27,422 nucleotides of DNA from a virus: the IMG/VR virus record IMGVR_UViG_3300035208_007474; one strand, written 5' to 3'. The position numbers and the translations under genes were made by a program. How positions within the stretch are numbered: position 1 is the stretch's first letter; the number at the start of each line of letters is the position of its first letter. Under the pieces are notes generated by a model. It made no database searches. It was given only the letters and a program-made list of their open reading frames with translations, and was not told the origin of the DNA. Positions 1,282-23,234 of this stretch are shown here, piece after piece.

Positions 1282-1298
1282 GTATTATATATGATTAT

Positions 1299-1325: not shown

Positions 1326-1344
1326 GTGTATTTGAAAGGAAAAT

Positions 1345-1815: not shown

Positions 1816-2735
1816 TATTTATTTTCTTTTAAAAAATGTTGATATGTTTTAGATATACCCTCTTCTAATTCTATCTTATGTTGCCATCCTAGATTATGTA
1901 ATTTTGATAAATCTAATAGTTTTTGAGGCGTTCCGTTTGGTCTAGAGGTATCATATTCTAAGCCGCCAGTGTATCCAACAGTTTTTTTGATTATTTCTGC
2001 AAGCTCTCTTATTGTAACGTCTTTGCCCGTTCCGACATTGATAATATCAGAACTGTTATAAGTATTCATTAAAAATATGGCTGCATCAGCCAAATCATCA
2101 ACATACATAAATTCTCTTTTGGGTTCTCCGTTGCCCCATAAAAGAACAGATGGTTGATTATGAATTTTGGCTTCATGTATTTTTCTGATTAATGCCGGGA
2201 GAACATGAGATTTTTCTAAATCGTAATGGTCATTTTGTCCATAAAGATTTGTAGGCATAAGGCAGATGCCATTAAATCCATATTGCTTTCTATATGCTTG
2301 TATCATTTGAATACCGGCAATTTTAGCGACAGCATAAGACTTATTTGTTTCTTCTAGAGGTCCGGTTAAGAAATATTCCTCTTTAATCGGTTGGGGGCAG
2401 AGACGTGGGTAAATGCAGCTTGACCCCAATAAGAGAATTTTTTTTACATTAGTTTGATAAGCTACGTTTATTACATTTGTTTGTATCATTAAATTATCGT
2501 AAATAAACTCGGCAGGGTAAGTATCGTTAGCCGCAATGCCGCCAACTTTCGCCGCAGCCAAAAATACATAATCGGGTTTTTGATGATTGAAAAACATTTT
2601 AACGGCAGATTCTCTTTTTAAATCAAAACTTGATGTAATGACATCGGTATAACCAGATTTTTTTAGTTGACGGCATATTGAACTTCCAACTAAACCTTGG
2701 CCACCTAAGACCAATATTTTTTCATTTTTGTCCAT
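1812..2735 (-). CDS. fcl: GDP-L-fucose synthase (GDP-4-keto-6-deoxy-D-mannose 3,5-epimerase/4-reductase)
   Basis: 307 aa; N-terminal Rossmann ILVLGGQGLVGSSI, SYAVAKIAG (YxxxK), and Fcl/WcaG/GMER-like conservation along the full length. Confidence 0.9.
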   Translation of the reverse strand: MDKNEKILVLGGQGLVGSSICRQLKKSGYTDVITSSFDLKRESAVKMFFNHQKPDYVFLAAAKVGGIAANDTYPAEFIYDNLMIQTNVINVAYQTNVKKILLLGSSCIYPRLCPQPIKEEYFLTGPLEETNKSYAVAKIAGIQMIQAYRKQYGFNGICLMPTNLYGQNDHYDLEKSHVLPALIRKIHEAKIHNQPSVLLWGNGEPKREFMYVDDLADAAIFLMNTYNSSDIINVGTGKDVTIRELAEIIKKTVGYTGGLEYDTSRPNGTPQKLLDLSKLHNLGWQHKIELEEGISKTYQHFLKENKY

Positions 2736-3729
2736 TTTGTTTGTTGTCCTTTAAAAATTTTTCATCTTTAGCTAACTCAAGGTCATATAGTGTCATATCT
2801 GTTATCAGTTGTTCGAATGTTACCTCTGGTTTCCACCCTAAAATAGTTCTGGCTTTTGTGGAATCTCCTAAAAGAACATCAATTTCGGTAGGTCGATAAT
2901 ATTTGGGGTCTATTATTACGTGGTTTTCCCATTTGAGATTTACGAGTTCAAATGCAATTTTGACAACCTCTTTGATAGAATGTGTTTCTCCTGTGGCAAT
3001 TACGAAATCATCCGGTTGGTTTTGCTGAAGCATAAGCCACATTGCTTTCACATAATCTGTTGCTGCTCCAAAATCTCTTTGAGACTCTAAGTTCCCCAAA
3101 TATACTTTATCTTGTAGTCCACACGCAATTCTAGTTGCCGCTCTTGTTATTTTTCTTATAACAAAAGTTTCTCCACGTCTTCGCCCGCTATGGTTAAAAA
3201 GAATGCCATTTGAAATAAACATATCGTATGCTTCTCTGTAGTTTCTGGCGTACCAGAATGCGGCTAACTTTGAAACACCATAAGGGCTTCTGGGACAAAA
3301 AATCGTGTTTTCATTTTGCGGTGGAGGGGAGTTCCCGAACATTTCGCTAGAAGAAGCTTGATAGACTTTAATTTTTTTGCCCAATATGTTTTGTGCATTT
3401 TTTACGGCTTCGAAAACATTAAATGCCCCTACTCCGGTAACCAATGACGTATAAATTGGAATGTCGAAAGACAATTTGACATGGGATTGTGCGGCTAAGT
3501 TGTAGACTTCATCAGGATTTATTTCAACAATGAGATTTTCTAATGAAGAATAGTCTGAAACATCGCCGTGGTGTAAATTGAGTCTATCGAAGATGTGGTC
3601 TATGCGTCCGGTGTTGAAGGTACTACTTCGTCTAATAATGCCATGAACGGAGTAATCGTTTTCCAACAGCAAATCGGCAAGATGACTTCCGTCCATTCCA
3701 GTTATGCCAGTAATCAATGCTTTTTTCAT
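2722..3729 (-). CDS. gmd: GDP-mannose 4,6-dehydratase
   Basis: 335 aa; ALITGITGMDGSHLADLLL, YGVSKLAAFWYARNYREAY, and Gmd-family conservation throughout; overlaps fcl by 14 nt as an operon. Confidence 0.9.
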   Translation of the reverse strand: MKKALITGITGMDGSHLADLLLENDYSVHGIIRRSSTFNTGRIDHIFDRLNLHHGDVSDYSSLENLIVEINPDEVYNLAAQSHVKLSFDIPIYTSLVTGVGAFNVFEAVKNAQNILGKKIKVYQASSSEMFGNSPPPQNENTIFCPRSPYGVSKLAAFWYARNYREAYDMFISNGILFNHSGRRRGETFVIRKITRAATRIACGLQDKVYLGNLESQRDFGAATDYVKAMWLMLQQNQPDDFVIATGETHSIKEVVKIAFELVNLKWENHVIIDPKYYRPTEIDVLLGDSTKARTILGWKPEVTFEQLITDMTLYDLELAKDEKFLKDNKQNGQK

Positions 3730-3784
3730 ATCTTAATCTAGTTTGTTTTCTTACAAAAACAAATAATCAAAGAGTAAATCTTAA

Positions 3785-3811
3785 TTGAAAACGGTTGGCA
3801 TATGATATAAT
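3785..3811 (+). promoter_or_regulatory. sigma70-like promoter TTGAAA-N15-TGaTATAAT (extended -10) in the divergent gmd / kinase intergenic region
   Basis: The hexamers and TG motif are seen directly at 3785-3790 and 3803-3811. Confidence 0.45.
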
Positions 3812-3817
3812 TGAGGT

Positions 3818-4462
3818 ATGACATCAGTGGCTCAAAATAAGATGGTTATAGGGTTGGTAGGCGGAATAGCCAGTGGTAAAACTATGATAGCGGAGTATCT
3901 TTCTCGTAAAGGTGCCACTATTTTTAATGCCAGCGTAGAAACCAGAAAAGCCTTAAGCAGTAAGGAAATGGTGGAAATGATTTTCGCTCAGTGGCCAGTT
4001 ATAAAAGCCACGGCGGTTATACAGGGTGTTACGGACATAACGATTTTGAAGAAGGAGCTTGCTAAAATTGTCGAATCTGACGACAACGAGCTTGCCTTTT
4101 TAGAAGGTCTTTTGTTCCCGATTGTTCGTAATCGCATGGAGAAGTTCGTTCATGTTATAAAACAAGGTGTGATTGTTATTGACGCCCCCTTGTTGTTCGA
4201 AATCGCTTGTGAAAAATATTGTAATGAGATTTGGTTCATTAACATGCCGTTGAAAGAGCGTTTTGCTCACTATATCAGACGTTTTGTCGGTGATGATATC
4301 GAAATCATACGCAAGGATTTTAAACTGCGTGAAGCTCGTCGTATGTCACTTCTTGAAAAAATGCGACGGTCAACTTTTCAAATCCCCAATAGAACAGGTC
4401 AGCTTTATACGACGTGGAGGACTGTCGATAAATTTTGGAATAGAATAATTACCAAATTGTGA
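3818..4462 (+). CDS. Dephospho-CoA kinase (CoaE) family P-loop kinase
   Basis: VIGLVGGIASGKTM matches CoaE IGLTGGIGSGKST; LLFPIVR / VVIDAPLLFE / RRFV-IRKD blocks are collinear with CoaE. Substrate assignment is uncertain. Confidence 0.55.
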   Translation: MTSVAQNKMVIGLVGGIASGKTMIAEYLSRKGATIFNASVETRKALSSKEMVEMIFAQWPVIKATAVIQGVTDITILKKELAKIVESDDNELAFLEGLLFPIVRNRMEKFVHVIKQGVIVIDAPLLFEIACEKYCNEIWFINMPLKERFAHYIRRFVGDDIEIIRKDFKLREARRMSLLEKMRRSTFQIPNRTGQLYTTWRTVDKFWNRIITKL

Positions 4463-4465
4463 TAT

Positions 4466-4651
4466 TTATTCGATATTATCTTTATCTGACTTGTCTAGTT
4501 CCGAACGTAAAATCAGTACATTTTCGTTAGCTTCGATGCCTAAACGTACTCTATTGTGGCTATCAATTCTGACTACCGTAATACTGATATCGGGATTCCC
4601 CGGTGTTCTTAAGATAATTTTTTCGTCTTTCTTCCTAGATAGAACTAACAT
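4466..4651 (-). CDS. csrA: Carbon storage regulator CsrA/RsmA homolog (RNA-binding translational regulator)
   Basis: 61 aa; MLVLSRK is identical to the Bacillus CsrA N-terminus and the VRLGIEA..NVLILRSEL core matches CsrA beta-strands; RBS AAGGAG 8 nt upstream; it is the only minus-strand gene in a long plus-strand block. Confidence 0.85.
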   Translation of the reverse strand: MLVLSRKKDEKIILRTPGNPDISITVVRIDSHNRVRLGIEANENVLILRSELDKSDKDNIE

Positions 4652-4732
4652 TTTTAAACTCCTTTATTCATTGATTATAATAGAGTTAGAAGTTAACTAG
4701 TTTTTTGATATAGAGAAAATTTATTTTTCTGG

Positions 4733-4762
4733 TTTTACAACAGACATTGGTTACGTATACTT
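4733..4762 (+). promoter_or_regulatory. sigma70-like promoter TTTACAAC-N-TATACT upstream of the AT-hook gene
   Basis: Member of the recurring TTTACA(AC) -35 family in this window. Confidence 0.4.
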
Positions 4763-4859
4763 TAAGGTGGAAAAGAACCCGGCTATTGTTAGTGGCCCGA
4801 TAGCTAGTAAAAAATAGGTTGAAAATAGGTCGCAGTCAAAAAGTAGAAGGAGTCTGAAC

Positions 4860-5528
4860 ATGAGTAAAGTAACTAATCATCCCCAAGTACTTGTGGCTTT
4901 TGAGGAACAGGCGCAGAAAGCTGTTCAAGAGGCACAGCTTGCTGAAGCCAAAGCAATTCTTTTCCGTTATCGTGCCAGTCTGTGCGAACAAGCTCAGGCA
5001 GTTAGGTCCGACACGGAAAAGATTATGTCCGAAATGACAGCCAAGCGTGAGGACATCGAGAAGCAGATTGTCGATATCGACAACAAAATTGTTGAAGTTG
5101 ACAAAGGTCAGATTCCTGCTAATATGCCAGAATTGACCGTTGCCGCCATGCCAAAACGTGGTCGTCCAGTCGGCGTAAAGGCCAAAAAGGCTGGTCGTCC
5201 TGCAAAGGCCAAAAAGGCTGGTCGTCCTGCAAAGGCCAAAAAGGCTGGTCGTCCTGCGAAAGTAAAGGCGACAAAGCGTGGCCGTCCGCTCCATACTTCC
5301 AGAGCGCATAATGAGCTTCCGTTGCGTCAGGTCGTTACCAACGTCCTGAAGGGAGCCAAGAATGGCCTGAACTTGACCGAATTGGTCGAAGCTATCGTCA
5401 AAACCGGCTATAAGTCGAAGACGAAAGACGATTTCGCAAAAATCGTCTATCAGGCGGTTTACAAGCTCTGCAAAGAAAAAACGGCGACCAAAGAGGCTGC
5501 AACCAAGAAGTATCGTCTCGTCGCTTAA
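4860..5528 (+). CDS. AT-hook / histone H1-H5-like DNA-binding protein (N-terminal coiled coil, 5 GRP AT-hooks, C-terminal linker-histone-like winged helix)
   Basis: KRGRPVGVKAKKAGRPAKAKKAGRPAKAKKAGRPAKVKATKRGRP; the C-terminal LTELVEAIVKTGYKSK...KKYRLV resembles the H1 globular domain. Confidence 0.75.
   Translation: MSKVTNHPQVLVAFEEQAQKAVQEAQLAEAKAILFRYRASLCEQAQAVRSDTEKIMSEMTAKREDIEKQIVDIDNKIVEVDKGQIPANMPELTVAAMPKRGRPVGVKAKKAGRPAKAKKAGRPAKAKKAGRPAKVKATKRGRPLHTSRAHNELPLRQVVTNVLKGAKNGLNLTELVEAIVKTGYKSKTKDDFAKIVYQAVYKLCKEKTATKEAATKKYRLVA
5181..5261 (+). repeat. 3 x 27-nt near-perfect tandem repeat (gccaaaaaggctggtcgtcctgcaaag) encoding AKKAGRPAK x3 inside the AT-hook gene
   Basis: Direct reading of the sequence; the third copy has a single substitution. 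Confidence 0.9.
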
Positions 5529-5553
5529 AACGGAAAACAGGTTTTTCTGTAAT

Positions 5554-5593
5554 GCTCCACTCGTAAAAAAATGCGAGTGGAGCGTTTTTTTTC
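5554..5593 (+). terminator. Rho-independent terminator (GCTCCACTCG-loop-CGAGTGGAGC + T9)
   Basis: 10-bp perfect stem followed by a T-run, 26 nt after the stop at 5528. Confidence 0.7.
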
Positions 5594-5671
5594 TTCCGTT
5601 TTTGAAACACTATACTATACTAATCTAGACCCCGATGCAGTTGGTTCCCCCCGGCCAACTGCTCAAAGAAG

Positions 5672-5707
5672 CCCCGACAGTCTCCCCCCGCTGTTGGGGT
5701 TTTTTTA
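5672..5707 (+). terminator. Second rho-independent terminator (CCCCGACAG-tctccccccg-CTGTTGGGG + T7); may be the 3' end of a small RNA
   Basis: 9-bp stem (one G-U pair) plus a T-run; preceded by a second hairpin (5637-5662) with a similar C-rich loop. Confidence 0.55.
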
Positions 5708-5790
5708 TTGGGAAATTCCAAACACAAAATTGTATGAAAAACGACAAATACTTGATGTTTAAAAGGTTATAAAGAAGTACGCTTTTGTCG

Positions 5791-5819
5791 TTTACAATTG
5801 CTTGTTGCCTAAATACAAT
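5791..5819 (+). promoter_or_regulatory. sigma70-like promoter TTTACA-N17-TACAAT for clpX
   Basis: Hexamers at 5791-5796 and 5814-5819; RBS GGAG 9 nt before ATG 5844. Confidence 0.5.
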
Positions 5820-5843
5820 GGGTAAAAGAAGGAGTGAGTGTTT

Positions 5844-7115
5844 ATGGCAAAGACAACCGAAGCAACTAAAGACAAAGACGTATGTAATTTTTGTGGTAAG
5901 TCGTGGCAGAAAGCAGGCGTAGGGCAGCTTGTGGAAAGTAAAATTGCCAAGAAAAAAGGACTTCCCAATGTGCGTATTTGTGCCAATTGCATAGCGATGG
6001 CAAATAACCTGTTGCAAGCCGAGCGACAGCAACGTGTAAAAACAGACAGCGATAGAGTTCTTAAAGCTCTTCCGTCTCCAAAGAAAATCGTGGACCATCT
6101 AGACCAGTATGTAATAGGGCAAGATGCGGCCAAGCGTAGTCTGGCTATTGCTGTTGTTAATCATTACAAACGATTAGTGGCAGAAACAAGCGAACAAGAT
6201 TCAGATGTACAATTGGAAAAATCCAATATTCTTATGATTGGTCCCACAGGTTGTGGCAAGACCCTTTTGATTCAAACATTGGCTAAAATGCTTGAGGTTC
6301 CATTAGCCATTGGTGACGCCACATCTTTGACAGAAGCCGGATATGTTGGAGATGATGTTGAAAATTTGCTTTTGCGATTGATTCAAGCCGCAGATAACAA
6401 TATTGAATTAGCACAGCGTGGAATTATTTACATTGACGAAATTGATAAAAAACGAAAAACTGGTGGTAATGTTTCTATCACAAGGGACGTGAGTGGCGAG
6501 GGTGTGCAGCAAGCTTTGCTTAAGATTATCGAAGGTACTACCGCTAATGTGCCGCCTCAAGGCGGTCGAAAGCATCCTGAGCAAGTATGTATCCCATTTG
6601 ATACTCGTCATACACTGGTAATTTGTGGTGGTACGTTTGTCGGTTTGGAAGATATAATTATCAATCGTATCGGGCGATGTGGTTTTGGTTTCGGTGTAAA
6701 ACCGACAGAATCCACTGAAACCCAAGATAATATTTTGGCTCGGGTAACTCCACAAGACCTCGTTGAATTTGGTATGATTCCCGAATTTATTGGGCGACTT
6801 CCCGTAATCACTCATGTGACATCATTGGACGAAGATGCGTTGTGTAGTATTTTAACTGAACCCAAAAATGCTTTAATTCGTCAATATCAGAAACTATTTG
6901 ATATGGATGGAGTAAAATTAGTGGTCGAAGATAATGCGCTAAAGGCAATTGTCAAAGCCGCTAAAATAAAAGGAACTGGTGCAAGGGCAATGCGTGGTAT
7001 TCTGGAAGAAGTAATTTCTCCCGCCATGTTTGATTTACGTTCGATGGCCGGTAAAACCTACACTCTCACAGAAACCATTGTTCAACAAATTCTTGAAAAT
7101 AATAAGGCAGCATAA
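5844..7115 (+). CDS. clpX: ATP-dependent Clp protease ATP-binding subunit ClpX (N-terminal C4 zinc-binding domain + AAA+)
   Basis: CNFCGK...CANC zinc finger; Walker A GPTGCGKT; Walker [10 protein letters not shown]; ClpX-family conservation along the full length; I chose the ATG at 5844 over the GTG at 5838. Confidence 0.9.
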
Positions 7116-7117
7116 AA

Positions 7118-7555
7118 ATGAAAACGGAAGCGATTTTAAAAGAAATTGTCAAGGACATGAAGAGTATAGTAAACATAGCAGGAAGTTTGCTGGTAGAGTC
7201 TCTCCCTGTCACCGCCACATGTGACCTTTTGATTATTTTAGATGAAGAATGGAATAAATTTTGTGATTCCAACCCAGAGACAATGGAGGCAATTGTGGAT
7301 GAGTTGGTTAAAAGAGAAGTTTATTCAATAACACCAATCATGAAAGAAAAAGGTTGGACTGCATTACAAATGGTTGAAAATTATGGTGCCAATTGGCACA
7401 TTTATGCGAAACCATTAACTTGTCCATATTGTAAGACTGACCTTCGTGACCCAATGGGACCGCCATTTAAGCGGGAAATAGGGCAATACGACCAAGCCAA
7501 AGACCGAACGATTTGTTTTCTTTGTCCGAATTGTCAAAATATTGTAAAGAGTTAA
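7118..7555 (+). CDS. Hypothetical protein with C-terminal zinc ribbon (CPYC...CPNC)
   Basis: 145 aa; starts 3 nt after the clpX stop. Confidence 0.5.
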   Translation: MKTEAILKEIVKDMKSIVNIAGSLLVESLPVTATCDLLIILDEEWNKFCDSNPETMEAIVDELVKREVYSITPIMKEKGWTALQMVENYGANWHIYAKPLTCPYCKTDLRDPMGPPFKREIGQYDQAKDRTICFLCPNCQNIVKS

Positions 7556-7557
7556 TT

Positions 7558-7836
7558 ATGTTTGGACAATTGAACAACGAAGACAATTATTATGCGTATC
7601 TTAAAACACAAGCACCAAAGGACGCAGACTGTAAAAAAGTGCTTTGGTGTCTTGAGGCTACGTTAGACCATTTTCTTTATGAACAAGAGCAAGATGAAAA
7701 ATTTCGGCACGATTGTGCTGAAATTCTTTTAAGAGCTTATTTTATAGATAGGTCAGCGTTCGACGGGGCAGATGCTAGATTAAAACATTTAGCACAGATT
7801 TTGGCTTATTTCGAAGAACTTCTCGCTCATGCTTGA
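7558..7836 (+). CDS. Hypothetical protein (92 aa)
   Basis: I chose the internal ATG at 7558, 2 nt after the previous stop, rather than the overlapping 7513 start. Confidence 0.45.
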   Translation: MFGQLNNEDNYYAYLKTQAPKDADCKKVLWCLEATLDHFLYEQEQDEKFRHDCAEILLRAYFIDRSAFDGADARLKHLAQILAYFEELLAHA

Positions 7837-7868
7837 TTTCTTTTGAAAAACAAGTAAAATTATAGTCC

Positions 7869-8273
7869 ATGACGATTTTATTTATATATGGTACGTTAAA
7901 ACGTGGATTTCATAATCATTGCCTATTAGATGGGCAAACATTTATATCCGTGGCTTTCACTAAGTCGATATATAGAATGTATGATTATGGTCATTTTCCT
8001 GTTATGGTTGTGGACATGGACGGCGTAAATATTCACGGGGAATTGTGGGAAGTGAATGATTTTTGTTTAAAGCAATTAGACAGACTAGAAGGCATCCCAC
8101 ATTTTTATGACAGATTGCCTGTTGAATTACTAGCCTCACTTCGATGTACCGGACGCCATCGCCGCCCGAAGGCCAAGGTTCATAATATTAAAGCTGAAAC
8201 TTATATCTGGCAGGGAGAAGTAGTTGGGTTAGAAGATTGTGGCCATAAATGGATTAAGAAGGCTAGGAAATAA
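7869..8273 (+). CDS. Gamma-glutamyl cyclotransferase / AIG2-like family protein
   Basis: N-terminal IYGTLKRG (YGSL-type motif), GELWEV, LDRLEGIP..YDR, all typical of the GGCT/AIG2 fold. Confidence 0.65.
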   Translation: MTILFIYGTLKRGFHNHCLLDGQTFISVAFTKSIYRMYDYGHFPVMVVDMDGVNIHGELWEVNDFCLKQLDRLEGIPHFYDRLPVELLASLRCTGRHRRPKAKVHNIKAETYIWQGEVVGLEDCGHKWIKKARK

Positions 8274-8296
8274 AATATTTTGTTAAAGGCAAAACT

Positions 8297-8437
8297 ATGA
8301 CAAACTCAAAACAGAAATGTTGTTGTTGTGGTGAACCGATTATAGGAATTAAACATCCAACTCCCGAAGGAGATATGTGTGATTCTTGTTACATAGAATG
8401 TGTTTGTAATGACGATGACGATGATGGTTGTCCGTGA
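8297..8437 (+). CDS. Small Cys-rich, acidic protein (46 aa: KCCCCGEP...CDSCYIECVCNDDDDDGCP)
   Basis: Below the ORF-track cutoff; I translated it by hand; AAAGG 7 nt upstream of the ATG; 11 Cys in 46 aa. Confidence 0.3.
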   Translation: MTNSKQKCCCCGEPIIGIKHPTPEGDMCDSCYIECVCNDDDDDGCP

Positions 8438-8458
8438 CTGTTAAAATAAGGAATTAAT

Positions 8459-8776
8459 ATGGAAACAATTACCACTCAAGAGCAATTTAATGAAATCACA
8501 TCACAGGGCGTTTCGCTAATTGATTTTGCGGCTAGTTGGTGTATGCCTTGCAAAATGATGGCCCCATTGTTAGATGACTTAGGTAAAAAATTTGAAGGTA
8601 GGGCTAGATTTGCGACGTTAGACGTAGATGAAGCAGCGAAAGTGGCCGTTCCTTTTAATATATCAGCGGTCCCCACTATCATGATTTTTAAAGACGGCAA
8701 TATGGCTGACAAGCTGGTGGGTATGCAAAATCAAGAAACCCTAGAAACTGCTGTAGAGGCAGTGCTTAAAAAATAG
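8459..8776 (+). CDS. trx: Thioredoxin
   Basis: 105 aa; WCMPCK active site (WCxPC); thioredoxin length and fold pattern (..PTIMIFKDG..); RBS AAGGAA. Confidence 0.9.
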   Translation: METITTQEQFNEITSQGVSLIDFAASWCMPCKMMAPLLDDLGKKFEGRARFATLDVDEAAKVAVPFNISAVPTIMIFKDGNMADKLVGMQNQETLETAVEAVLKK

Positions 8777-8828
8777 CTTTACGTTTGCCTTTTCCAATTT
8801 CTATAATTTACCTGTCTAGGAGAAAATT

Positions 8829-9401
8829 TTGAAAATTGATTTAGGTAAATTATTAGTAAGCCAAGAGGAATTAAGAGATGTGCAACAAGTCGTTGGCATG
8901 GTTCGTCATGTCTATAATCATGGTTTATGGACACAAGAAGTGCTAGACAAGTTTTCTCCTGATGGGTCTAATAAATTAATCGCTGTTACTCGTTTTCCAG
9001 ATGATAAGTTGCTTTTGCACGATGGACACCATAGATTATTTGCCACTTTATTAGCTGGTCGAAGGGTCTTGATGCCGGAAGAATATGTGTTAACAGACAG
9101 GCAATATGCGGATTACTTGGAAATAAACTTTAAGACTGGTTGGCTAACTCCGTTTTGTCCGATGAAAGAGATTAGAATTGCCGATTTTATCAATTTTAAG
9201 AGAGAAGCCGCAGCCATCGTCGCAATAAATGAAGAGCGAGCTAAGAGTTTTATCGTGGCAAATAGACAAAGATATGTTCGACTTCGAACACTGCATACGT
9301 TGGAAGATTTAGTAAAACGATATGAAAATGAACTCAAGAGACAAGATATATGGCAATTGTCTGATGCTTGCGCCCAACGGCAAGCCAATGTGCCGGTGTG
9401 A
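8829..9401 (+). CDS. ParB/sulfiredoxin-like nuclease-domain protein
   Basis: LLLHDGHHRLFA (ParB N-terminal DGxHR motif); TTG start 6 nt after AGGAG. Confidence 0.55.
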   Translation: MKIDLGKLLVSQEELRDVQQVVGMVRHVYNHGLWTQEVLDKFSPDGSNKLIAVTRFPDDKLLLHDGHHRLFATLLAGRRVLMPEEYVLTDRQYADYLEINFKTGWLTPFCPMKEIRIADFINFKREAAAIVAINEERAKSFIVANRQRYVRLRTLHTLEDLVKRYENELKRQDIWQLSDACAQRQANVPV

Positions 9402-10074
9402 TGACAAAAAAGTTAATTGGTATCTGTCTAGGAATTTGGCAAAAGTTGTTGCTGAGAATCCGCCAATAATTCAATTAACCTTTGTTCCAAAAGGTGAAGG
9501 GCACGAAGACTTATATTATCTTCTCAAAAAGAATAATGTTTGTGCCGTTTGTGGTGGTTCCAAAGAGTTGACAAGACATCATTTAGTACCACACGAATAT
9601 CGCAGGCACTTCCCAGATTATATTAAAAAACATAATTCATATGATATTTTATTATTGTGTGTTGACTGTCATGTGAAATATGAAGAAACAGCAGTTCAGT
9701 TTAAAAAGCAAATAGCAGAAGAGATGGGGATTCAATTTCACAATCCAAGGAATCTCAATAAACGGTTAGTTGTTGCCAAGCGCATCGCCAATACATTGTT
9801 AACTCATGGTGATGCGATACCGCAGTCTAAAAAAGATATTTTATTGGCAAGAATTTCGGAAAGTTTGGACAAAAAAAATGTGGATTTTGCGGAGTTGTCT
9901 GCGATAGCTGCTCTTGAATTAGAGCTACCGCCGCCAACGAAGAATCAAGCTCAACAAGTTGTCGAGCAGTTACCCGATTTGTTTACGTTTGTTGTGCGGT
10001 GGCGGGAACATTTTGTCGAAACGATGAGTCCGAAATTTTTACCGGCGTATTGGGAAACCGATAAGTCATTATAA
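9322..10074 (+). CDS. HNH-motif protein (CxxCGG..HHLVP..N..LLLCxxCH); start uncertain (9322, 9364 or 9388)
   Basis: CAVCGGSKELTRHHLVPHE...HNSYDILLLCVDCHVKYE matches the HNH beta-beta-alpha-metal consensus; with the 9322 start it overlaps the upstream gene by 80 nt. Confidence 0.5.
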   Translation: MKMNSRDKIYGNCLMLAPNGKPMCRCDDKKVNWYLSRNLAKVVAENPPIIQLTFVPKGEGHEDLYYLLKKNNVCAVCGGSKELTRHHLVPHEYRRHFPDYIKKHNSYDILLLCVDCHVKYEETAVQFKKQIAEEMGIQFHNPRNLNKRLVVAKRIANTLLTHGDAIPQSKKDILLARISESLDKKNVDFAELSAIAALELELPPPTKNQAQQVVEQLPDLFTFVVRWREHFVETMSPKFLPAYWETDKSL

Positions 10075-10117
10075 AGAGCTAGTTAAAATGTACATTGGGT
10101 TCTCCGTAAGGAGGTAA

Positions 10118-10786
10118 ATGAGTAATTTTAAACGATATGTCGAAGAAGGAAGAGAATGGCGTGGGAAATATCCCAAGACATATCATTTCAGTTTTTCGCC
10201 AAATCTTCAAAATGATGACAGGATGTTAGAAGATGACAATATCCTTGTTGGAAAGAATGTCGTTGTAAGCGAAAAATTAGACGGCGAAGGAACCGGGATG
10301 ACCAGAATTGTATGTCACGCTCGTTCTTTGGATTCTAGGGACCATCCTTCCAGACATTGGGTGAAAGCGTTGCATGCTTCTGTTAAACAAAACATACCTG
10401 AAGGTTGGCATTTTTTTGGGGAAAATTTATTTGCCGCCCATTCGATTCGATACGATAAATTGCCGACATATTTCTTTTTGTTTATGATTGTTAATGATAA
10501 ACAAATGTGTTTGTCGTGGCAGGATACAAAAGAGTGGGCAGAATTGCTCGGACTACAAACCGTACCTGTTCTTTATGAAGGCCCATGGGATATTGAAAAA
10601 GTACAAGCTTGTTACACAGGTCAATGCCCTTGGGGAGAAGCCCAAGAGGGATATGTGGTTCGCAATGCGGCAATGTTTCCGATTAAAGATTTTTCACTTA
10701 ATATGGGGAAATGTGTGCGATACAACCATGTTCAGACAGGTGATTTTTGGATGAAAAATTGGGTTCAGAATAAATTGTCCAAATAA
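10118..10786 (+). CDS. ATP-dependent RNA ligase, Rnl2-like nucleotidyltransferase domain
   Basis: Motif I VSEKLDGEGTGM (KxDG), motif III FFGENLFA, motif IIIa YFFLFMIV, motif IV EGYVVRN and motif V GKCVRY, collinear with the T4 Rnl2 N-terminal domain; strong RBS AAGGAGG. Confidence 0.65.
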   Translation: MSNFKRYVEEGREWRGKYPKTYHFSFSPNLQNDDRMLEDDNILVGKNVVVSEKLDGEGTGMTRIVCHARSLDSRDHPSRHWVKALHASVKQNIPEGWHFFGENLFAAHSIRYDKLPTYFFLFMIVNDKQMCLSWQDTKEWAELLGLQTVPVLYEGPWDIEKVQACYTGQCPWGEAQEGYVVRNAAMFPIKDFSLNMGKCVRYNHVQTGDFWMKNWVQNKLSK

Positions 10787-13789: not shown

Positions 13790-13879
13790 AATTTGCTAGG
13801 CGGGACTAGAATGCTGTTTCCCAATAATTAAATTGTACATGGGGAAGATGTGGATGAAAAATTTCCGAAAGGTGATAAA

Positions 13880-14464
13880 ATGAGTAAATTACAAGATGAC
13901 ATAGTTCAAACATTTAATCAAGGAATGAGTATCGTAGAAACAGCAGAAAAATATGGAATGTCTTATGAAGTTATTTATTGCATAATCACTAAGGCTATCG
14001 GTAATGCGGCAGTTAAAGAACGAAAACGGGATAGAAATAGGTCGGTCATACAAGATTTTACTGACGGTATGAGTCGTTCTAGTTTATGCGATAAATATGA
14101 TTTGTGTTGGGTTACTATTTCTAATATTCTTAAGGCTACTATGAGTAAATGGTCCATCAAAAGGAATGAATTATTAAATCGCAATTTACAAATCATGCAA
14201 GATTACCAACATATTAGTAGACAAGAATTAATGAACAAATATAACTTAAGTTGGACTAGACTTCATGAAATTATCAGTAAAGCAGGGGGAACGGTTAAAC
14301 ATAAACAATATTCATTGCAGTTGTCCTTAAATCTTGGTTTTAAAATTTTGAAAAAGTTATTGTTGAATAAAGATAGTCAATCTATTAGCGAAGAATTAGG
14401 TTGTTCTGTTCAATACGTAAGCTGTATTAGAAAATTGGGACGGGAAAATGGGCTGATAAGTTAA
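13880..14464 (+). CDS. DNA-binding protein with four tandem ~45-aa helix-turn-helix repeats
   Basis: Repeats IVQTFNQGMSIVETAEKYGMSYEVIY / VIQDFTDGMSRSSLCDKYDLCWVTISNI / QIMQDYQHISRQELMNKYNLSWTRLHEI / KLLLNKDSQSISEELGCSVQYVSCI; RBS AAGGTG 8 nt before ATG 13880. Confidence 0.55.
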   Translation: MSKLQDDIVQTFNQGMSIVETAEKYGMSYEVIYCIITKAIGNAAVKERKRDRNRSVIQDFTDGMSRSSLCDKYDLCWVTISNILKATMSKWSIKRNELLNRNLQIMQDYQHISRQELMNKYNLSWTRLHEIISKAGGTVKHKQYSLQLSLNLGFKILKKLLLNKDSQSISEELGCSVQYVSCIRKLGRENGLIS

Positions 14465-14484
14465 TTTTTGTCCATTTTTCTGCT

Positions 14485-14512
14485 TTACAACCATAATTCT
14501 TAAAGTTAGAAT
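14485..14512 (+). promoter_or_regulatory. sigma70-like promoter TTTACAAC-N-TAGAAT for the PARP gene
   Basis: gctTTACAACCATAA motif shared with the promoter at 20600. Confidence 0.45.
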
Positions 14513-14546: not shown

Positions 14547-16142
14547 ATGGGTATTAAACTTGAAAAAAACACGTTTCCAGTAAGCCATGGGGCAGAAGAT
14601 TTCCAGTGTTTCGGTCCTCCTGCCACAAAAGATGGCGTATTTGAAGGGACCATGATTGCTGATTGTGGTTGCTTTACTCAGGATGGGAAAGATTCGAATA
14701 AATATTATCACAGTGCGGTTGTTCAGTCTAAATGTAATCAAAAATGGTACGTTTATTTTGAGTGGGGACGAGTAGGGGCAAATCATCCATCATTTCAATT
14801 TACTGATTGTTCAAATAAGTCTGATGCCGAACATGATTATTGTGACCAGCTTCATCAGAAAAATGATAAGCGTGGCGAATGGATTCAACATCCATCTTTG
14901 GGTAAAATTCTTCGAGCGAAAACAGGAAAAGATTGTTATTTGGTAAGGCCGCAGGCCAAAAGAAGTACCGGCCTTCCAGATGCTAGAACCATTGTTCACA
15001 ATGAAGGTGTTTCTGTTGTTAAAACATCCAAGCCAACTGGCAAGGTTTCGACGGTCAATGTAGACAAAGCCACACTTGAGTTAATGCGGGATTTGAATGT
15101 TGGTACAGTTAATTATACCAGAGCTTCTATGGCTGACGCCGCAATTCCAACTCAAGTAGCTTTGGATGAAGCTCGTTCTATTTTGATTGCAGCACAACAA
15201 CGTGTTTCCAATGTGGGTGATGATGTCGAAGACCAAATCAAAGATACGGAATTGAGGCATTTAACGGCACTGATGTATGGCCGAATTCCTAAGAAGAAAG
15301 ACCGCAACGCCTCACCGGATAAATGGATTCTATCAGCGTCTAATATTGGTACGTGGAACCTAGACATTGATGCATTTGAGTCGGCTTTAAAAACTGCCGA
15401 TATGGGACAAGACCAAGCAGACCCATTTGATGGCATGCGACTTCAGATGCGGCATTTGTCTAAAAAAGGTAACCCAATTGGTGAATTTATTCATGGTTGG
15501 GCACCGAGTGCAACACGTAATATGCATAATTATTTGAAGGAAAAATTGCAAATAATTAATGTATGGGAGATTGAACGTGAAGGTGATGCGGCAAAGATAG
15601 CTAGAGTTCAAGCTGCAATTGCTGCACAAAATTGGAAACCGTCAGAAAGACCGCTGCATCAACCTGCTCGGTCGGACCTTTCTAGAAACATTGCTAAGAT
15701 TTATGCCAGAACTAACACATGTTTACTTTTTCACGGCACACGTACTGTAAATGTGTCGGGTCTGCTGCGTGAATCTTGGCGATTACGTAATAATCTGGTT
15801 GGGGTGCAACTTACCGCTGCTATGTTCGGTCCGGGTGTTTATTGGGCTGATGATTGGAAAAAGAGCGCAGGTTATACCAGCATGTCCGGTGCATATTGGA
15901 CAAAGGGCGGCGGTGGTATTGGTGGTCGTGGTGCATTTATGTTTATAGCTGATGTTGTGCTTGGTGCATCTTATCTTGCCCCAAGAGCAGAAGGTTTTAC
16001 GAAACCACCAAATGGTTATCATTCGGTTTTCGGCAAGGCCAATTTTACAAAGGGTAGTTATGGCGAAATTGCCAATAACGAATTTATTACTTATAACAGC
16101 GACCAGTGTGTGGCCAGATATTTAGTAGAATTCGCTAGGTAA
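14547..16142 (+). CDS. Poly/mono(ADP-ribose) polymerase (PARP) homolog: N-terminal WGR domain, helical region, C-terminal PARP catalytic domain with an H-Y-E triad
   Basis: WYVYFEWGRVG (WGR signature); catalytic LLFHGTRTVNVSGLL (H-G-T), GPGVYWADDWKKSAGY (Tyr), NEFITYNSDQ..YLVEF (Glu, as in PARP1 YNEYIVY); I set the start at ATG 14547 downstream of the promoter. Confidence 0.8.
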   Translation: MGIKLEKNTFPVSHGAEDFQCFGPPATKDGVFEGTMIADCGCFTQDGKDSNKYYHSAVVQSKCNQKWYVYFEWGRVGANHPSFQFTDCSNKSDAEHDYCDQLHQKNDKRGEWIQHPSLGKILRAKTGKDCYLVRPQAKRSTGLPDARTIVHNEGVSVVKTSKPTGKVSTVNVDKATLELMRDLNVGTVNYTRASMADAAIPTQVALDEARSILIAAQQRVSNVGDDVEDQIKDTELRHLTALMYGRIPKKKDRNASPDKWILSASNIGTWNLDIDAFESALKTADMGQDQADPFDGMRLQMRHLSKKGNPIGEFIHGWAPSATRNMHNYLKEKLQIINVWEIEREGDAAKIARVQAAIAAQNWKPSERPLHQPARSDLSRNIAKIYARTNTCLLFHGTRTVNVSGLLRESWRLRNNLVGVQLTAAMFGPGVYWADDWKKSAGYTSMSGAYWTKGGGGIGGRGAFMFIADVVLGASYLAPRAEGFTKPPNGYHSVFGKANFTKGSYGEIANNEFITYNSDQCVARYLVEFAR

Positions 16143-16192: not shown

Positions 16193-16220
16193 TTTACAAC
16201 AACAAGTTTAAAAGTATAAT
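16193..16220 (+). promoter_or_regulatory. sigma70-like promoter TTTACA-N16-TATAAT
   Basis: Hexamers read directly; preceded by an ATGTACGTAAAAGTAGTGAAG element related to the TGTACA motif family. Confidence 0.5.
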
Positions 16221-17268: not shown

Positions 17269-17351
17269 AAGGTAGAGATGAGATTATGGCACAGCACAGG
17301 TAGTAGTGATTCGAAATGACTTTTGTAGCATGGCAATGGAAGAAAAGAAAA

Positions 17352-18053
17352 ATGAAACTAGATAACAAGTTTTTTGAAAGGTTCTTTCCGAAATCAACGG
17401 ATTCTGTTGATGAATTACGAAATATCTTGGCAGTAGCTCGTCAAACTATCGGTCATCAACAAGAGTTAATGATTCGGCTTTCAGCAGAACCACTTCTGTA
17501 TGCGACAATTCTATCTGTTAGTAATAAAATTGACCCAAAGAATTTTGCAATTGGTGGATGGGTTTTAGTGACAGACAAGGAAAGTCCTTTTTTTCATAGA
17601 ATCGGGCAAATTGTTAAAGCCGTTGATGGAGAAGTAACGGTCGATTTTTACGGTGCAGAAAAAACCCATAATTTTAAAATTGGTATCAAAAGTGAGTCGC
17701 AAATTAAGTTGTTGTTTAAGAATGACGGACGTTTTGCCGTCGTTACATATGGAAACAGGATTTTCGAAGTTTGGGGAAATGTCACAGAACAGGTCAAGCC
17801 CGGTTATATTGCGAAGCTAAACAAACACACATTGCAGATTGTGGATATCATCCCGCCTACTTGTATGGGTGAAGTGGCAAAAGTCATAAAGCGTTTGGAC
17901 AACAGGCATGTGCTTTTAGACCTTGGACACAAGTATAGAGCAGTTATCTGCGAATTTGTTGTTAAAAAAGGCGATGAGGTCTTAATAGACCCAAGTCATT
18001 CTGTGGTTACGAAGATATGCGGTCGCATGAAAACAGCACGGAAAACACGATAG
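17352..18053 (+). CDS. Hypothetical protein (start 17352 preferred; 17316 is possible)
   Basis: GGAAG about 11 nt upstream of ATG 17352. Confidence 0.5.
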   Translation: MKLDNKFFERFFPKSTDSVDELRNILAVARQTIGHQQELMIRLSAEPLLYATILSVSNKIDPKNFAIGGWVLVTDKESPFFHRIGQIVKAVDGEVTVDFYGAEKTHNFKIGIKSESQIKLLFKNDGRFAVVTYGNRIFEVWGNVTEQVKPGYIAKLNKHTLQIVDIIPPTCMGEVAKVIKRLDNRHVLLDLGHKYRAVICEFVVKKGDEVLIDPSHSVVTKICGRMKTARKTR

Positions 18054-19319: not shown

Positions 19320-19367
19320 GTGGGGGAAACTAGTTTACAGGTCATCTCAAAAGGATATAATCTTGAT

Positions 19368-20360
19368 ATGGAAATGAAGGATAAAATCCAAGGTATGTTT
19401 TTAGGCACGTTTATCGGTGATGCGCTCGGTTTTCCTGTAGAGGGCTGGTCTTCCGAACGGATTGCTGAAACATATGGTCGTATCATTAGTTTTGTGAAGC
19501 CTGATAAACATAAGTGGTTCGGTGAAAAAGAAGTTGGTACTCCTACTGACGATTGGCAATTAACAAAAGCTGTTGCCGAATCTTTAATCATTAGTGGAAT
19601 GGATATGGATGCGATAGCTGAAGCACATAAAGCCGCATTCAACGAATCAATTGTTGGATGGGGCGGCACAACCTCTAGTGCTGTCCGAAATTTACTAAAT
19701 GGAGCAACGTGGGAAAAGTCGGGGCTTCCTATTGGGATGGGAAATGGATGTGCCATGAAGATTGCTCCCGTAGCTGCTTTAGTCGCCGCTAAGTATCAAT
19801 CTGGTAAAGTTGTAGATTTTATTGTCAAATTAACCTGCATGACTCATCGTAATGTCTTAGCCGTTTGCACGACTTTGGCTCAAGCAGAAGCAATTTATTA
19901 TTGTTTAACTGCCCAAAAATTTAACGCCATCAAATTTGCTAATCGAATTATTGTCGGCAGTGTGCTGGGGGAATTCTTGAGCGAAGATATTGTTACCGAA
20001 GGTATGACTATTGATTTTCCTGATACCACGCAACGATTGAAGTTGTTGAAGGATTATAAAAAATACGACGACCAGAGAATTATCAAAGAATTTCAGGGAA
20101 CAGCTTACGCATACAATAGCATTCCGTTTTCCTTGATGTTTTTTATCAGAAATCCGAATTCTATTAATGCTATGTACGATGTAATTGCGGCTGGTGGCGA
20201 TACAGATACAAATGCTTCAATGGTTGGCTCACTTTTAGGTGCGTTGAACGGAGTTGACATATTTCCAATGGAATTGGTGAATCAAATGTCTTCAAAGTAT
20301 CGGGACGAAGTGACAGATGTCGCTAATCGTTTTTACAACAAATTTTTTGAGGAAAAATAA
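19368..20360 (+). CDS. ADP-ribosylglycohydrolase (ARH/DraG family)
   Basis: GMFLGTFIGDALGFPVEG, GTPTDDWQLT and AAGGDTDTNASMVGSLLGALNG are the three hallmark ARH metal-binding blocks; I chose ATG 19368 over the GTG at 19320. Confidence 0.85.
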   Translation: MEMKDKIQGMFLGTFIGDALGFPVEGWSSERIAETYGRIISFVKPDKHKWFGEKEVGTPTDDWQLTKAVAESLIISGMDMDAIAEAHKAAFNESIVGWGGTTSSAVRNLLNGATWEKSGLPIGMGNGCAMKIAPVAALVAAKYQSGKVVDFIVKLTCMTHRNVLAVCTTLAQAEAIYYCLTAQKFNAIKFANRIIVGSVLGEFLSEDIVTEGMTIDFPDTTQRLKLLKDYKKYDDQRIIKEFQGTAYAYNSIPFSLMFFIRNPNSINAMYDVIAAGGDTDTNASMVGSLLGALNGVDIFPMELVNQMSSKYRDEVTDVANRFYNKFFEEK

Positions 20361-22259: not shown

Positions 22260-23234
22260 ATGAAATATAATCAATATAAAACATTATTCGAAGTTCTGAA
22301 GATGTTTAAGCAATATGACGTTTATTATCGTTCGCTACTTGCCTCTATCACCGAAGCTATGACGCAGACGACGAATCGTGGGGAAGGGCTTGGTGCTTTA
22401 AGCATGAATGCGTCCCAAGTAGTTGCGGAGTGGTATTGGCATAAATCAGGAAAACCTTATTATAATATTCATCCCTCATTAATTAACACATTTTCTAAAT
22501 GTACAATGGACATCCCCGCTAATCTTGTTCGTTTCCCTTTTCCAACATTTTCGATTAATTTGCCGTCACCGGAAGAAGGCAATCCGTTGATTATAAACGA
22601 GCAATATTACATTAAATCATTTTTATGTCATTGGTCAAATAATGCATCTTTAATTAATGCCGCTAGAAGTATGGGGTTAAAAACGTTAGACGGAAGAAGC
22701 GGCGACGAAAACAGAATGATAATTTGGATTGATATTGGAGAAACAGAAAAGGCATTTGATGGTAAGGACTTGCCAATTTATACTTATAGACAATTAGCAT
22801 ATGTTGGCGACGAATCAATAGATGTGGCTTTACATAAATTGCCGCCAGACGATTCCGCAAATATAGGTGTTGTAATTAATGAAGAAACAATTCTAAAATG
22901 TATAAAATTAATGATTTCTGTATGTTTTTTGGTGGAATCTAATGACCCCCTTGTATTACCTGATATTCTAGCCAAGGATAGATTTTTACTCGAAGACGCA
23001 GATGAAGAAAAATTAAAACAATTACAAGAAAAAGCCAGATTAAAAGATAAATTCGGTTGGATTATTGGTATTGAGAATGGCCGCAAAATAGCGGGTGGGG
23101 AGCATCAGCTTTCTTATGCCCATATTCGCACTGGACATTGGCATAAAGTTTTATTTGGTGTCGGCAAGAAACAGTTTAAAGTAATATGGTATAGGCCGGT
23201 GACCGTAAGGCCAGATTTGCCAATGAAACTATGA
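22260..23234 (+). CDS. Hypothetical protein (324 aa) immediately upstream of the MVP homolog
   Basis: RBS GGGAG; no recognisable motif. Confidence 0.55.
   Translation: MKYNQYKTLFEVLKMFKQYDVYYRSLLASITEAMTQTTNRGEGLGALSMNASQVVAEWYWHKSGKPYYNIHPSLINTFSKCTMDIPANLVRFPFPTFSINLPSPEEGNPLIINEQYYIKSFLCHWSNNASLINAARSMGLKTLDGRSGDENRMIIWIDIGETEKAFDGKDLPIYTYRQLAYVGDESIDVALHKLPPDDSANIGVVINEETILKCIKLMISVCFLVESNDPLVLPDILAKDRFLLEDADEEKLKQLQEKARLKDKFGWIIGIENGRKIAGGEHQLSYAHIRTGHWHKVLFGVGKKQFKVIWYRPVTVRPDLPMKL

Follow-up and report, generated by a model that had tools for sequence, protein, structure and literature searches.

Why would a bacteriophage carry a poly(ADP-ribose) polymerase (PARP) built like the eukaryotic sensors of DNA breaks? 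The question is raised by a stretch of viral DNA of 27,422 nucleotides (nt), IMG/VR virus record IMGVR_UViG_3300035208_007474, which we call the window. The open reading frame (ORF) at 14547..16142 on its + strand had been described without database searches (the sequence-only reading) as a WGR-domain PARP with an intact H-Y-E catalytic triad. We found both domains and the triad as described. That reading had passed over a helical regulatory domain (HD) between the WGR and catalytic domains, as well as the partner genes, which encode a winged-helix (wHTH) protein, a NUDIX hydrolase and an ADP-ribosylglycohydrolase (ARH). We give an even chance to the explanation that these genes form an end-triggered, reversible ADP-ribosylation module used in phage–host conflict.

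Domain order and active site of the window PARP

The gene and its domains, with residues counted in amino acids (aa), are:

14547..16142 (+): PARP gene, 531 aa plus stop, with the order WGR, HD, ART (ADP-ribosyltransferase)
14547..14996 (+): WGR region, aa 1-150; the Pfam WGR core is aa 43-108, nt 14673-14870
15054..15596 (+): HD (PARP_reg-like), aa ~170-350, from profile, model and transitive homology
15597..16139 (+): ART catalytic domain, from Pfam, profile and PARP1 alignment

The ORF listing offers two starts, TTG 14526 and ATG 14547, with a common end at 16142 on the + strand. We retained the ATG, and with it the coordinates above, because it matches the N-terminus of the homologues (consensus MxTKLxK). 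Pfam detected both outer domains above their curated cut-offs: PARP (PF00644) at aa 324-529 with E = 1.8e-19 and 70.5 bits (cut-off 26.7), and WGR (PF05406) at aa 43-108 with E = 1.3e-8 and 35.3 bits (cut-off 22). The C-terminal domain is thus assigned to the PARP family and not to a non-PARP ART fold. All motifs quoted in the sequence-only reading are present, namely FEWGRVG at aa 71-77 (nt 14757-14777), of which W73-G74-R75 occupies nt 14763-14771, FHGT at aa 395-398, GVYWAD at aa 430-435 and NEFITYN at aa 511-517. The best PHROG match, phrog_23333 ('polymerase'), came through the PARP-like C-terminal part of that family.

A sequence search against solved structures returned human PARP1 WGR-HD-CAT constructs as the best matches, in three colinear stretches. 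A family profile (A2) built from 51 sequences and aligned to the solved PARP1 structures lifted this match to E = 4.3e-28, with E = 6.7e-16 for the PARP1 catalytic domain. The A2 alignment paired llfHGt with llwHGs, GlYFAD with GIYFAD, and NNEfivf with YNEyivy (family and PARP1, respectively), placed the window WGR on the PARP1 WGR, and matched the HD region colinearly to the PARP1 HD with independent E-values of 9e-4 to 1.4e-3. W, G and R are conserved in 47-48 of 48 family sequences (22 phage and 26 planctomycete). The AlphaFold2 model (mean predicted local distance difference test, pLDDT, 85.7; predicted template-modelling score 0.83) contains six helices at aa 174-284, in the HD region. 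Foldseek against the PDB gave PARP1 and PARP2 WGR-HD-CAT structures on DNA breaks as the best hits (E = 3e-23, full-length alignments), with template-modelling scores of 0.64-0.71 when normalised to the target PARP1 chains. Moreover, aa 202-529 are 29% identical to the phage PARP of locus L062, in which the equivalent region is PARP_reg-positive in Pfam. As modelled, the window PARP is a WGR-HD-ART protein, the core found in PARP1-3 as well as in the bacterial PARPs characterised so far.

In the explicit alignment with PARP1, as in the profile alignment, the triad residues H396 (nt 15732-15734), Y432 (15840-15842) and E512 (16080-16082) fell on H862, Y896 and E988, with none of them replaced. 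The NAD+-binding residues G863, S904 and Y907 have their equivalents in G397, S440 and Y443 according to the explicit alignment. H396, G397, Y432, K439, S440, Y443 and E512 are invariant in 48/48 sequences (22 phage, 26 planctomycete). The residue map makes the window PARP very probably catalytically competent. An inactive decoy was ruled out by the invariance of every catalytic and NAD+-binding residue, and a toxin-type or R-S-E ART by the H-Y-E map together with the PF00644 match.

The sequence-only reading was therefore right to see a genuine PARP rather than a degenerate toxin-type ART, but its step from H-Y-E alone to chain elongation did not hold. PARP3 and PARP4 carry H-Y-E and only mono-ADP-ribosylate (PMC10711553); the triad is thus necessary but insufficient. 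Elongation in PARP1 is controlled by K903, H826, M890 and the L985/Y986 backbone, and PARP3 and PARP4 are without the PARP1 acceptor-site residues (PMC10711553). In the window PARP, H826 corresponds to H327 (nt 15525-15527, within the HD region) and M890 to M426 (15822-15824), each at least 90% conserved in the family, and K903 to the invariant K439 (15861-15863). Since these equivalents are conserved, the predicted synthesis of oligo- or poly(ADP-ribose) is plausible.

The window PARP shares with eukaryotic PARP1/2/3 (clade 1) the domain order, W-G-R, H-Y-E, and the equivalents of G863/S904/Y907 and of H826/M890/K903, and its model superposes on DNA-break-bound PARP1 and PARP2. It differs from them in being only ~16-20% identical, in having no zinc fingers, BRCT or N-terminal extension, in an insertion of ~38 residues before the HG strand, and in being phage-encoded beside ARH and NUDIX genes instead of PARG. 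Four cysteines in the WGR region are also specific to the family: C21, C42, C88 and C130 (window 14607-14936) are kept in the phage as well as the planctomycete proteins and are missing from outgroup PARPs. They could form a metal site or disulfides.

Among prokaryotic enzymes, Herpetosiphon aurantiacus HaPARP and Clostridioides difficile CdPARP are likewise WGR (+reg) proteins with an H-Y-E PARP domain. Both make poly(ADP-ribose) in vitro, HaPARP in a DNA-requiring manner (PMC8120803), and glycohydrolases encoded alongside them reverse the modification (PMC8120803, PMC4245714). They pair with PARG, whereas the window family has its own wHTH partner, occurs in huge phages and planctomycete retron operons and, by bit score, forms a cluster of its own. 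Compact phage WGR-PARPs (L062, 437 aa; BFVD A0A8D9PE85, 415 aa) share H-Y-E, the short acceptor loop and the NNE motif, as do the catalytic-only PARPs of Klebsiella, Xanthomonas and Stenotrophomonas jumbo phages; L062 also has WGR and PARP_reg. Compared with the window PARP, these other phage PARPs are at most 29% identical, ~100 residues shorter and without the wHTH/ARH/NUDIX synteny. Most cultured-phage PARPs match the window PARP over the catalytic domain only, and a viral structure library yielded three full-length matches, all at 18% identity or less.

A huge-phage family with a retron-linked sister clade

The window has no near-identical DNA in the phage collection, while a nearly identical second contig of 15 kb is present in ENA. 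Its PARP is 53.5% identical over 99% of the length to a gene of LR756511.1, an uncultured phage genome of 595 kb that shares the order 1345-homologue, ClpX-like, 7869, 9322, PARP, 16540, ARH (genes are named by their window start). IMG/VR holds 20 related PARP loci, most on contigs of 100-572 kb. The window has a GC content of 40%, its genes lie almost all on one strand, and they include a ClpX-like AAA+ protein, an RNA ligase, a Dam methylase, a Mor/helix-turn-helix (HTH) protein, an AcrVA2-like gene and a Major Vault Protein (MVP) homologue. No tRNA was found in the window. We conclude that the window is a fragment of a huge bacteriophage, roughly of the 400-600 kb class.

A word-indexed search returned 765 PARP homologues at E<=1e-5; the best 120 are nearly all full length (520-540 aa) and 50-64% identical. 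With this number of homologues and an invariant triad, the PARP identity is far beyond chance. An exhaustive profile search retrieved 3,784 PARP-domain proteins, among which ~35 full-length clusters at 50% identity scored above 500 bits before a sharp drop; other WGR-PARPs scored 180 bits or less with the family profile. As judged from sequence, the family is compact and distinct, and lives in uncultivated huge phages and in Planctomycetota chromosomes. PARPs had been called rare in prokaryotes and their viruses. This is correct for cultured genomes (PMC4245714), where a 2014 census counted 28 bacterial PARPs and four from double-stranded DNA viruses, but not for the window family, with hundreds of members in metagenomic huge phages and Planctomycetota.

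The genes that recur around the PARP are:

10118..10786 (+): RNA ligase (PF09414), Pfam E = 2e-30, a recurrent neighbour of phage PARPs
16540..17196 (+): wHTH PARP partner, 218 aa, from conserved synteny and an AlphaFold2 model
17316..18053 (+): conserved neighbour, 245 aa; in locus L002 its homologue forms the N-terminal region of an AAA+ protein of 556 aa
18305..18922 (+): NUDIX hydrolase of the ADP-ribose/ADP-sugar pyrophosphatase type, with an intact Nudix box and a Pfam NUDIX match at 1.5e-14
19320..20360 (+): ARH (ARH/DraG/ARH3 superfamily) eraser, Pfam PF03747 at 2.1e-50

One set of phage loci, group A, comprises the window, L002/17, L003-L006, L015/16, LR756511.1 and L033. According to a tblastn matrix, these loci keep the order ClpX, 7869, 9322, RNA ligase, PARP, 16540, 17316, (NUDIX), ARH, 20684, despite a PARP identity of only 47-54%. 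These conserved partners, the winged-helix protein, the NUDIX and the ARH, carry most of the functional information.

The wHTH partner consists, in its model (mean pLDDT 88), of a winged helix (aa 1-95), a disordered stretch (aa 100-121), which corresponds to a Pro/Ala-rich, acidic linker in the homologues, and a beta-rich C-terminal domain. Foldseek matched the N-domain to the winged helices of RTP, PadR and ORC at E ~0.03; Pfam, PHROG, NCBIfam and PADLOC gave no match for the protein. An AbrB-like nature of the C-domain was a guess from the sequence pattern that stayed unconfirmed, as the N-domain dominated the Foldseek matches. With a hidden Markov model of the N-domain, the partner was found to adjoin the PARP at ~35 loci, which comprise every phage locus of group A and about 25 from planctomycetes. 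An invariant Met-Cys start characterises 18/18 phage homologues, and the planctomycete domain fused to a reverse transcriptase (RT) is without it.

The best PDB matches of the NUDIX protein were NUDT5 (1.2e-14) and bacterial ADP-ribose pyrophosphatases, and NCBIfam placed it in the NudE family (1.3e-14). A NUDIX gene also follows the PARP in L005, L006 and L015. The ARH retains its metal-binding motifs GDALG, TDD and GGDTDT, matched MJ1187 (1.2e-23), DraG (4e-15) and ARH3 (4e-11) in the PDB, and recurs 4-9 kb downstream of the PARP in L002-L006, L015, L023 and L033. A Pfam scan of 21 window ORFs, with the smaller ORFs left out, found no PARG or macro domain. The RNA ligase lies upstream of the PARP in L002, L006, L015, L016 and L033, and again in a block of LR756500.1 that joins PARP and MVP; it is a possible functional partner of the phage PARPs. 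The 17316 protein gave a weak NCBIfam match to the proteasome-ATPase N-region (E = 0.0023) and otherwise nothing informative in PADLOC, PHROGs, NCBIfam or Pfam. It may be a truncated partner; in LR756500.1, too, the PARP is followed by an AAA protein. The 20684 protein had no informative match in PADLOC, PHROGs, NCBIfam or Pfam.

Two promoter-like elements belong to this gene block:

14484..14512 (+): sigma70-like promoter element, TTTACA, 17 nt, TAGAAT, containing the 13-mer TTTACAACCATAA, 35 nt upstream of the PARP ATG
16193..16220 (+): second copy, TTTACAACAACAA..., 16-nt spacer, TATAAT, upstream of the 16269 and 16540 genes

The promoter that the sequence-only reading had seen upstream of the PARP and at 20600 was recovered, with TTTACAACCATAA exact at 14484 and 20600 on the + strand. 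The upstream regions of 14484, 16193 and 20600 share TTTTnGCTTTACAAC, followed by a TAnAAT box. The motif TTTACA-N16-18-TAnAAT has five matches in the window (5791, 14484, 16193, 19334 and 20600), all on the + strand, against 0.21 expected, and none of 100 shuffles reached five. Four of the five sites lie just upstream of gene starts (ClpX-like 5838, PARP 14547, 16269 and 20684). The fifth, 19334, sits just inside the annotated GTG 19320 of the ARH, so that the ARH start may lie further downstream. Directly upstream of the PARP promoter, 13850-14464 (+) encodes a multi-HTH protein (Mor activator family, HTH_23/28, CENP-B_N), a possible regulator of the TTTACA-type promoters that was seen on no contig other than the window and its near-identical twin. 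In many loci, such as L007 (9968-11719, - strand, 583 aa), a very long antisense ORF runs across the PARP gene; these ORFs are probably an artefact of codon composition, and an alternative genetic code in some huge phages is possible.

In a scan of GTDB with one genome per species, 36 loci were found, of which 35 are binned as Planctomycetota (Pirellulaceae, Gemmataceae, Planctomycetaceae). Among them are a closed chromosome of 7.8 Mb, a contig of 4 Mb and the cultured Neorhodopirellula pilleata Pla100, and their GC content is 51-66%. The 36th, L033 (CALFYV010000090.1, 546 kb, 38% GC), is binned as Bacteriovoracaceae and is syntenic with the window in RNA ligase, PARP, wHTH partner, ARH and 20684 homologue. 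Most likely, this contig is the genome of a huge phage that was wrongly binned with a bacterial metagenome-assembled genome.

The N. pilleata locus (L034, NZ_SJPM01000010.1) contains a block of six same-strand genes at 681-10123 of the locus, or about 18.6-28.1 kb of the accession: ARH (3e-42), a 617-aa protein, a 568-aa protein, a 643-aa RVT_1 protein, PARP and Macro (1.2e-45). PADLOC identified the middle genes as HEAT-ARM_XIII (3.4e-160), SWIM_XIII (1.1e-183) and RT_XIII (1.8e-154), that is, a type XIII retron. The flanks are ordinary cellular genes (Ser/Thr kinase, oxidoreductase, P450), and the GC content matches the host; with these, a prophage-borne PARP is unsupported for L034. Among 20 planctomycete loci with at least 7.5 kb of upstream flank, RT and SWIM are present in 14, HEAT-ARM in 12 and ARH in eight, and Macro follows the PARP in 9 of the 24 loci with enough downstream flank. 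The retron-PARP arrangement was also noted for L027, L030, L031, L035, L037, L038, L042-L047, L051, L054, L056 and L057. The first ~85 residues of the planctomycete RT protein, outside the RT_XIII profile, are the winged-helix domain of the 16540 partner; where the RT is without it, as in some loci, a standalone partner of ~230 aa follows the PARP, as in phage.

Canonical type XIII retrons (Mx162, Mx65, Ne144 class) consist of RT, SWIM/DEDE and a WGR-like HEAT/ARM protein, and their defining paper never mentions PARP or ADP-ribosylation (PMC7736814). In the literature searched, we found no report of a retron-PARP link, nor any description of PARP, Macro or ARH as belonging to a retron, whereas the sister PARP clade sits inside such operons. 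The window itself was ruled out as a retron, the retron parts being absent, and PADLOC gave no match for its PARP, 16540, 17316 and 20684 proteins. In a neighbour-joining tree, which is only indicative (no support values, rooting on second-tier matches), the planctomycete PARPs form one clade inside the phage diversity, adjoining group A. This nesting suggests that the host system derives from a phage gene.

A proposed reversible ADP-ribosylation module and its rivals

We propose that the window PARP is the writer of a small, reversible ADP-ribosylation module in a huge phage. By homology, its WGR domain would recognise a nucleic-acid end or discontinuity, for example an RNA end, or a nick or break with a 5'-phosphate in the DNA of the phage or its host, and this binding would relieve autoinhibition by the HD, as in PARP1-3. 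Break-dependent activation is what we infer from the WGR domain, the HD and the likeness of the model to DNA-bound PARP1/2. The ART domain, with its catalytic residues in place, would then use NAD+ on itself, on proteins or on nucleic-acid termini, probably with some elongation. The ARH, recognised by its sequence and synteny, would remove the mark, and the NUDT5/NudE-like NUDIX would turn the released ADP-ribose into AMP and ribose-5-phosphate. The wHTH partner, conserved directly after the PARP, would target or regulate it. There is precedent for such chemistry: phosphorylated DNA ends are substrates of PARP1-3, and their modification is reversed by ARH3 and macrodomains (PMC8053099). The module would mark or protect broken nucleic acids, or modify host factors when nucleases strike, rather than serve housekeeping. 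The retron-embedded sister clade of the planctomycetes and the RNA-ligase and RNA-repair neighbours of the phage genes suggest this role in conflict. The gene context also fits the earlier proposal of a role at the NAD+/ADP-ribose interface between phage and host.

Several observations weigh against this explanation. Pfam did not detect PARP_reg in the window PARP, and the HD assignment is drawn from a weak profile match, the predicted structure and transitive homology. In contrast to PARP1/2/3, the 27-residue loop that precedes the catalytic Glu (YNEY) is absent, and Y986 is replaced by N510, an Asn invariant in the family. With this short loop, the Asn and a poorly modelled stretch at aa 415-425, the product length is uncertain. 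The closest known ARHs to the window eraser are MJ1187 and DraG, with no PARG, which fits mono-ADP-ribosylation equally. The partners are unevenly distributed as well: a NUDIX occurs in only part of group A, and a second set of phage loci, group B, has its PARPs among Thg1-like, SpoU-methylase, metallophosphoesterase and aldolase-like genes, with no ARH, NUDIX or wHTH partner within 10 kb. The retron context does not carry over directly to the phage, because RT, SWIM and HEAT-ARM were not found in the window or phage loci (tblastn, E<=1e-2), except for the ~85-aa wHTH N-domain. The activity of the family is a prediction from sequence, model and context.

A different possibility is a constitutive, Alt/Mod-like modifier for host takeover, in which WGR and HD would serve only as scaffold or for targeting, and ARH and NUDIX would limit collateral damage. 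Jumbo phages commonly encode ARTs, for which a role in redirecting the host machinery has been proposed, and for phage PARPs an Alt/Mod-like action, though with polymers, has been suggested (PMC7824862). The PARP has its own sigma70-like promoter, of a class common to several neighbouring genes, and L002 has an ORF nearby that resembles the C-terminal domain of the RNA polymerase alpha subunit. T4 Alt, ModA and ModB are, like the window PARP, phage-encoded NAD+-dependent ARTs used during infection. However, they are R-S-E (cholera-toxin-like) mono-ARTs without WGR or HD and belong to an unrelated subfamily (PMC8120803), whereas the window enzyme is of the H-Y-E (diphtheria-toxin/PARP-like) type. 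The strict conservation of the break-sensor architecture (W-G-R, HD) in phages and planctomycetes would be hard to explain if sensing were irrelevant, and the genes that abound nearby process nucleic-acid ends and do not encode transcription factors. Takeover of this kind seems to us unlikely.

The enzyme could also be a PARP3-like mono-ART that acts on the 5'-phosphates of nicks and breaks, where it would shield the ends or prime ATP-independent ligation with no polymer or protein signalling. PARP3 mono-ADP-ribosylates 5'-phosphorylated DNA ends, and the adduct allows ATP-free ligation and protects the ends (PMC8053099). The RNA ligase that recurs beside phage PARPs of two lineages, erasers of the ARH or Macro type and not PARG, and the short acceptor loop with N510 in place of Y986 all suit such an enzyme. 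Against it, PARP3 is without the H826 and M890 equivalents, and the window family keeps H327, M426 and K439. Tankyrases, too, have a short acceptor loop and still form polymer. We judge a purely mono-ADP-ribosylating role distinctly unlikely.

Counter-defence would assign the erasers the leading part: ARH and NUDIX would erase ADP-ribosylation by the host (DarT-like ARTs, retron-linked PARPs), and the PARP and its wHTH partner would compete with or mimic the host sensor. NAD+/ADP-ribose systems are central to phage–host conflict (PMC9503650), the wHTH N-domain is fused to a host retron RT beside a host PARP, so that a free phage copy could interfere, and an AcrVA2-like gene lies 6 kb downstream. 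For the latter, a 324-aa ORF at 22260-23234 (+) between the ADP-ribose genes and the MVP gene, the AcrVA2-like match (PF26125) comes from precomputed Pfam results; a Pfam scan of the ORF at E<=0.01 gave no match. The catalytic and NAD+-binding residues are invariant in the phage copies, so these are no decoys, and the tree, though without support values, suggests a host system from a phage gene and not the reverse. The window also has a GC content of 40% versus 51-66% in the Planctomycetota. Overall, counter-defence appears quite improbable.

The last two readings involve a vault component encoded in the window:

23342..25882 (+): full-length MVP homologue, 846 aa, Pfam Vault_3 at 3.7e-9 and MVP_shoulder at 3.4e-25

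The protein is colinear with MVP 425-879 (E = 4.7e-13), and its gene lies 7.2 kb downstream of the PARP. Bacterial MVP homologues gave >4,372 matches, the closest at 50-55% identity and many from Myxococcota metagenome-assembled genomes. On large viral contigs in IMG/VR, an alignment query confirmed 189 MVP stretches; with the single window sequence as the query nothing was confirmed, and the alignment was needed. The window MVP had no 100% match in a collection of 5.8 billion proteins (best 55%), and the PARP and wHTH partner have 100% matches there. A PARP lies within 10 kb of an MVP gene in four phage contexts of three PARP lineages: the window (7.2 kb), L012 (the same as L065), LR756500.1 (the same as L073), and L062, where a WGR-PARP_reg-PARP gene is 1.4 kb upstream of MVP. 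A 2023 preprint reported two phage MVPs, far fewer than the stretches confirmed here, and did not consider phage PARPs.

In LR756500.1, a 462-kb phage, PARP and MVP belong to one same-strand block (L024, LR756500.1 12000-40000; 6930-18872, - strand) with PARP-cat, R2K ATP-grasp, AAA, RNA ligase, HD+P-loop kinase, CoaB-like, MVP, two small unannotated ORFs and Macro. The PARP of this block has a catalytic domain and an unassigned N-terminus of 244 aa. With the CoaB-like gene here and a dephospho-CoA kinase (CoaE) in the window at 1812-4462, beside a GDP-mannose 4,6-dehydratase and an NAD-dependent epimerase (- strand), coenzyme A pathway genes are found in both PARP+MVP phage blocks.

PARP4 and an NADase are found inside vaults, whose MVP shoulder binds NAD+/ADP-ribose. 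As in the PARP4/MVP vault, a WGR-HD-ART PARP and a full-length MVP occur near each other in the window genome, and we regard the association as suggestive. In PARP4, neither the W-G-R residues nor the acceptor site has survived, and BRCT, vWA and MINT domains are present (PMC10711553); the window PARP retains W-G-R and H327/M426/K439, and Pfam found no MINT, vWA or BRCT domain in it. The scanned window ORFs include no TROVE/TEP1-like protein. An Rfam scan of the window for vault RNA, Y RNA and retron-like RNA gave only a sub-threshold RNAI match, regarded as chance. A strict MVP-PARP linkage was ruled out: a nearby PARP was seen at only 3 of the best 80 viral MVP loci, only one of 20 PARP contigs is among these 80, and 18/20 PARP loci have no MVP within 10 kb. 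LR756511.1 has a PARP and no MVP match, and LR756501.1 an MVP and no PARP nearby.

A broader scenario, highly improbable in our estimate, would have a vault-like MVP shell of the phage house or work with PARP, ARH and NUDIX as an NAD+/ADP-ribose compartment, and the PARP lineage later captured as the effector of planctomycete type XIII retrons, with WGR reading multicopy single-stranded DNA (msDNA). That the window PARP is cargo or a partner of a phage vault-like particle, analogous to vPARP/PARP4, is the least probable reading of all: four contexts in three lineages and the NAD+-related biology of vaults speak for it, and the rarity of the pairing, the PARP and MVP genomes without the other gene, and the missing vault RNA and PARP4-type domains speak against it.

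Meaning for phages, retrons and vaults

The enzyme class was already known: PARPs are on record in "a few jumbo phages" (PMC7824862), although the huge-phage genome paper of Al-Shayeb makes no mention of PARP, ADP-ribose or vault. What appears to be new is the distinct family, its wHTH/ARH/NUDIX module in huge phages and the retron-linked sister clade, along with the four family-specific cysteines, the shortened acceptor loop and the insertion before the HG strand.

With this family, the range of complete break-sensor PARPs (WGR-HD-ART), so far eukaryotes and a few bacteria, comes to include a sizeable, conserved group in huge phages. Its eraser, ADP-ribose disposal enzyme and winged-helix partner make it a compact phage system for studying how a PARP is activated and reversed, free of eukaryotic complexity. 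No description of the effector mechanism of type XIII retrons was found in the literature searched, and the operons suggest a model for it: WGR would read the msDNA, the PARP would fire, and Macro and ARH would reset the system. The recurrent proximity of PARP and MVP in phages is a lead on the unsolved function of vaults that merits a formal test. The hint in the tree that a phage gene was recruited for host defence bears, in turn, on the origin of the eukaryotic PARPs.

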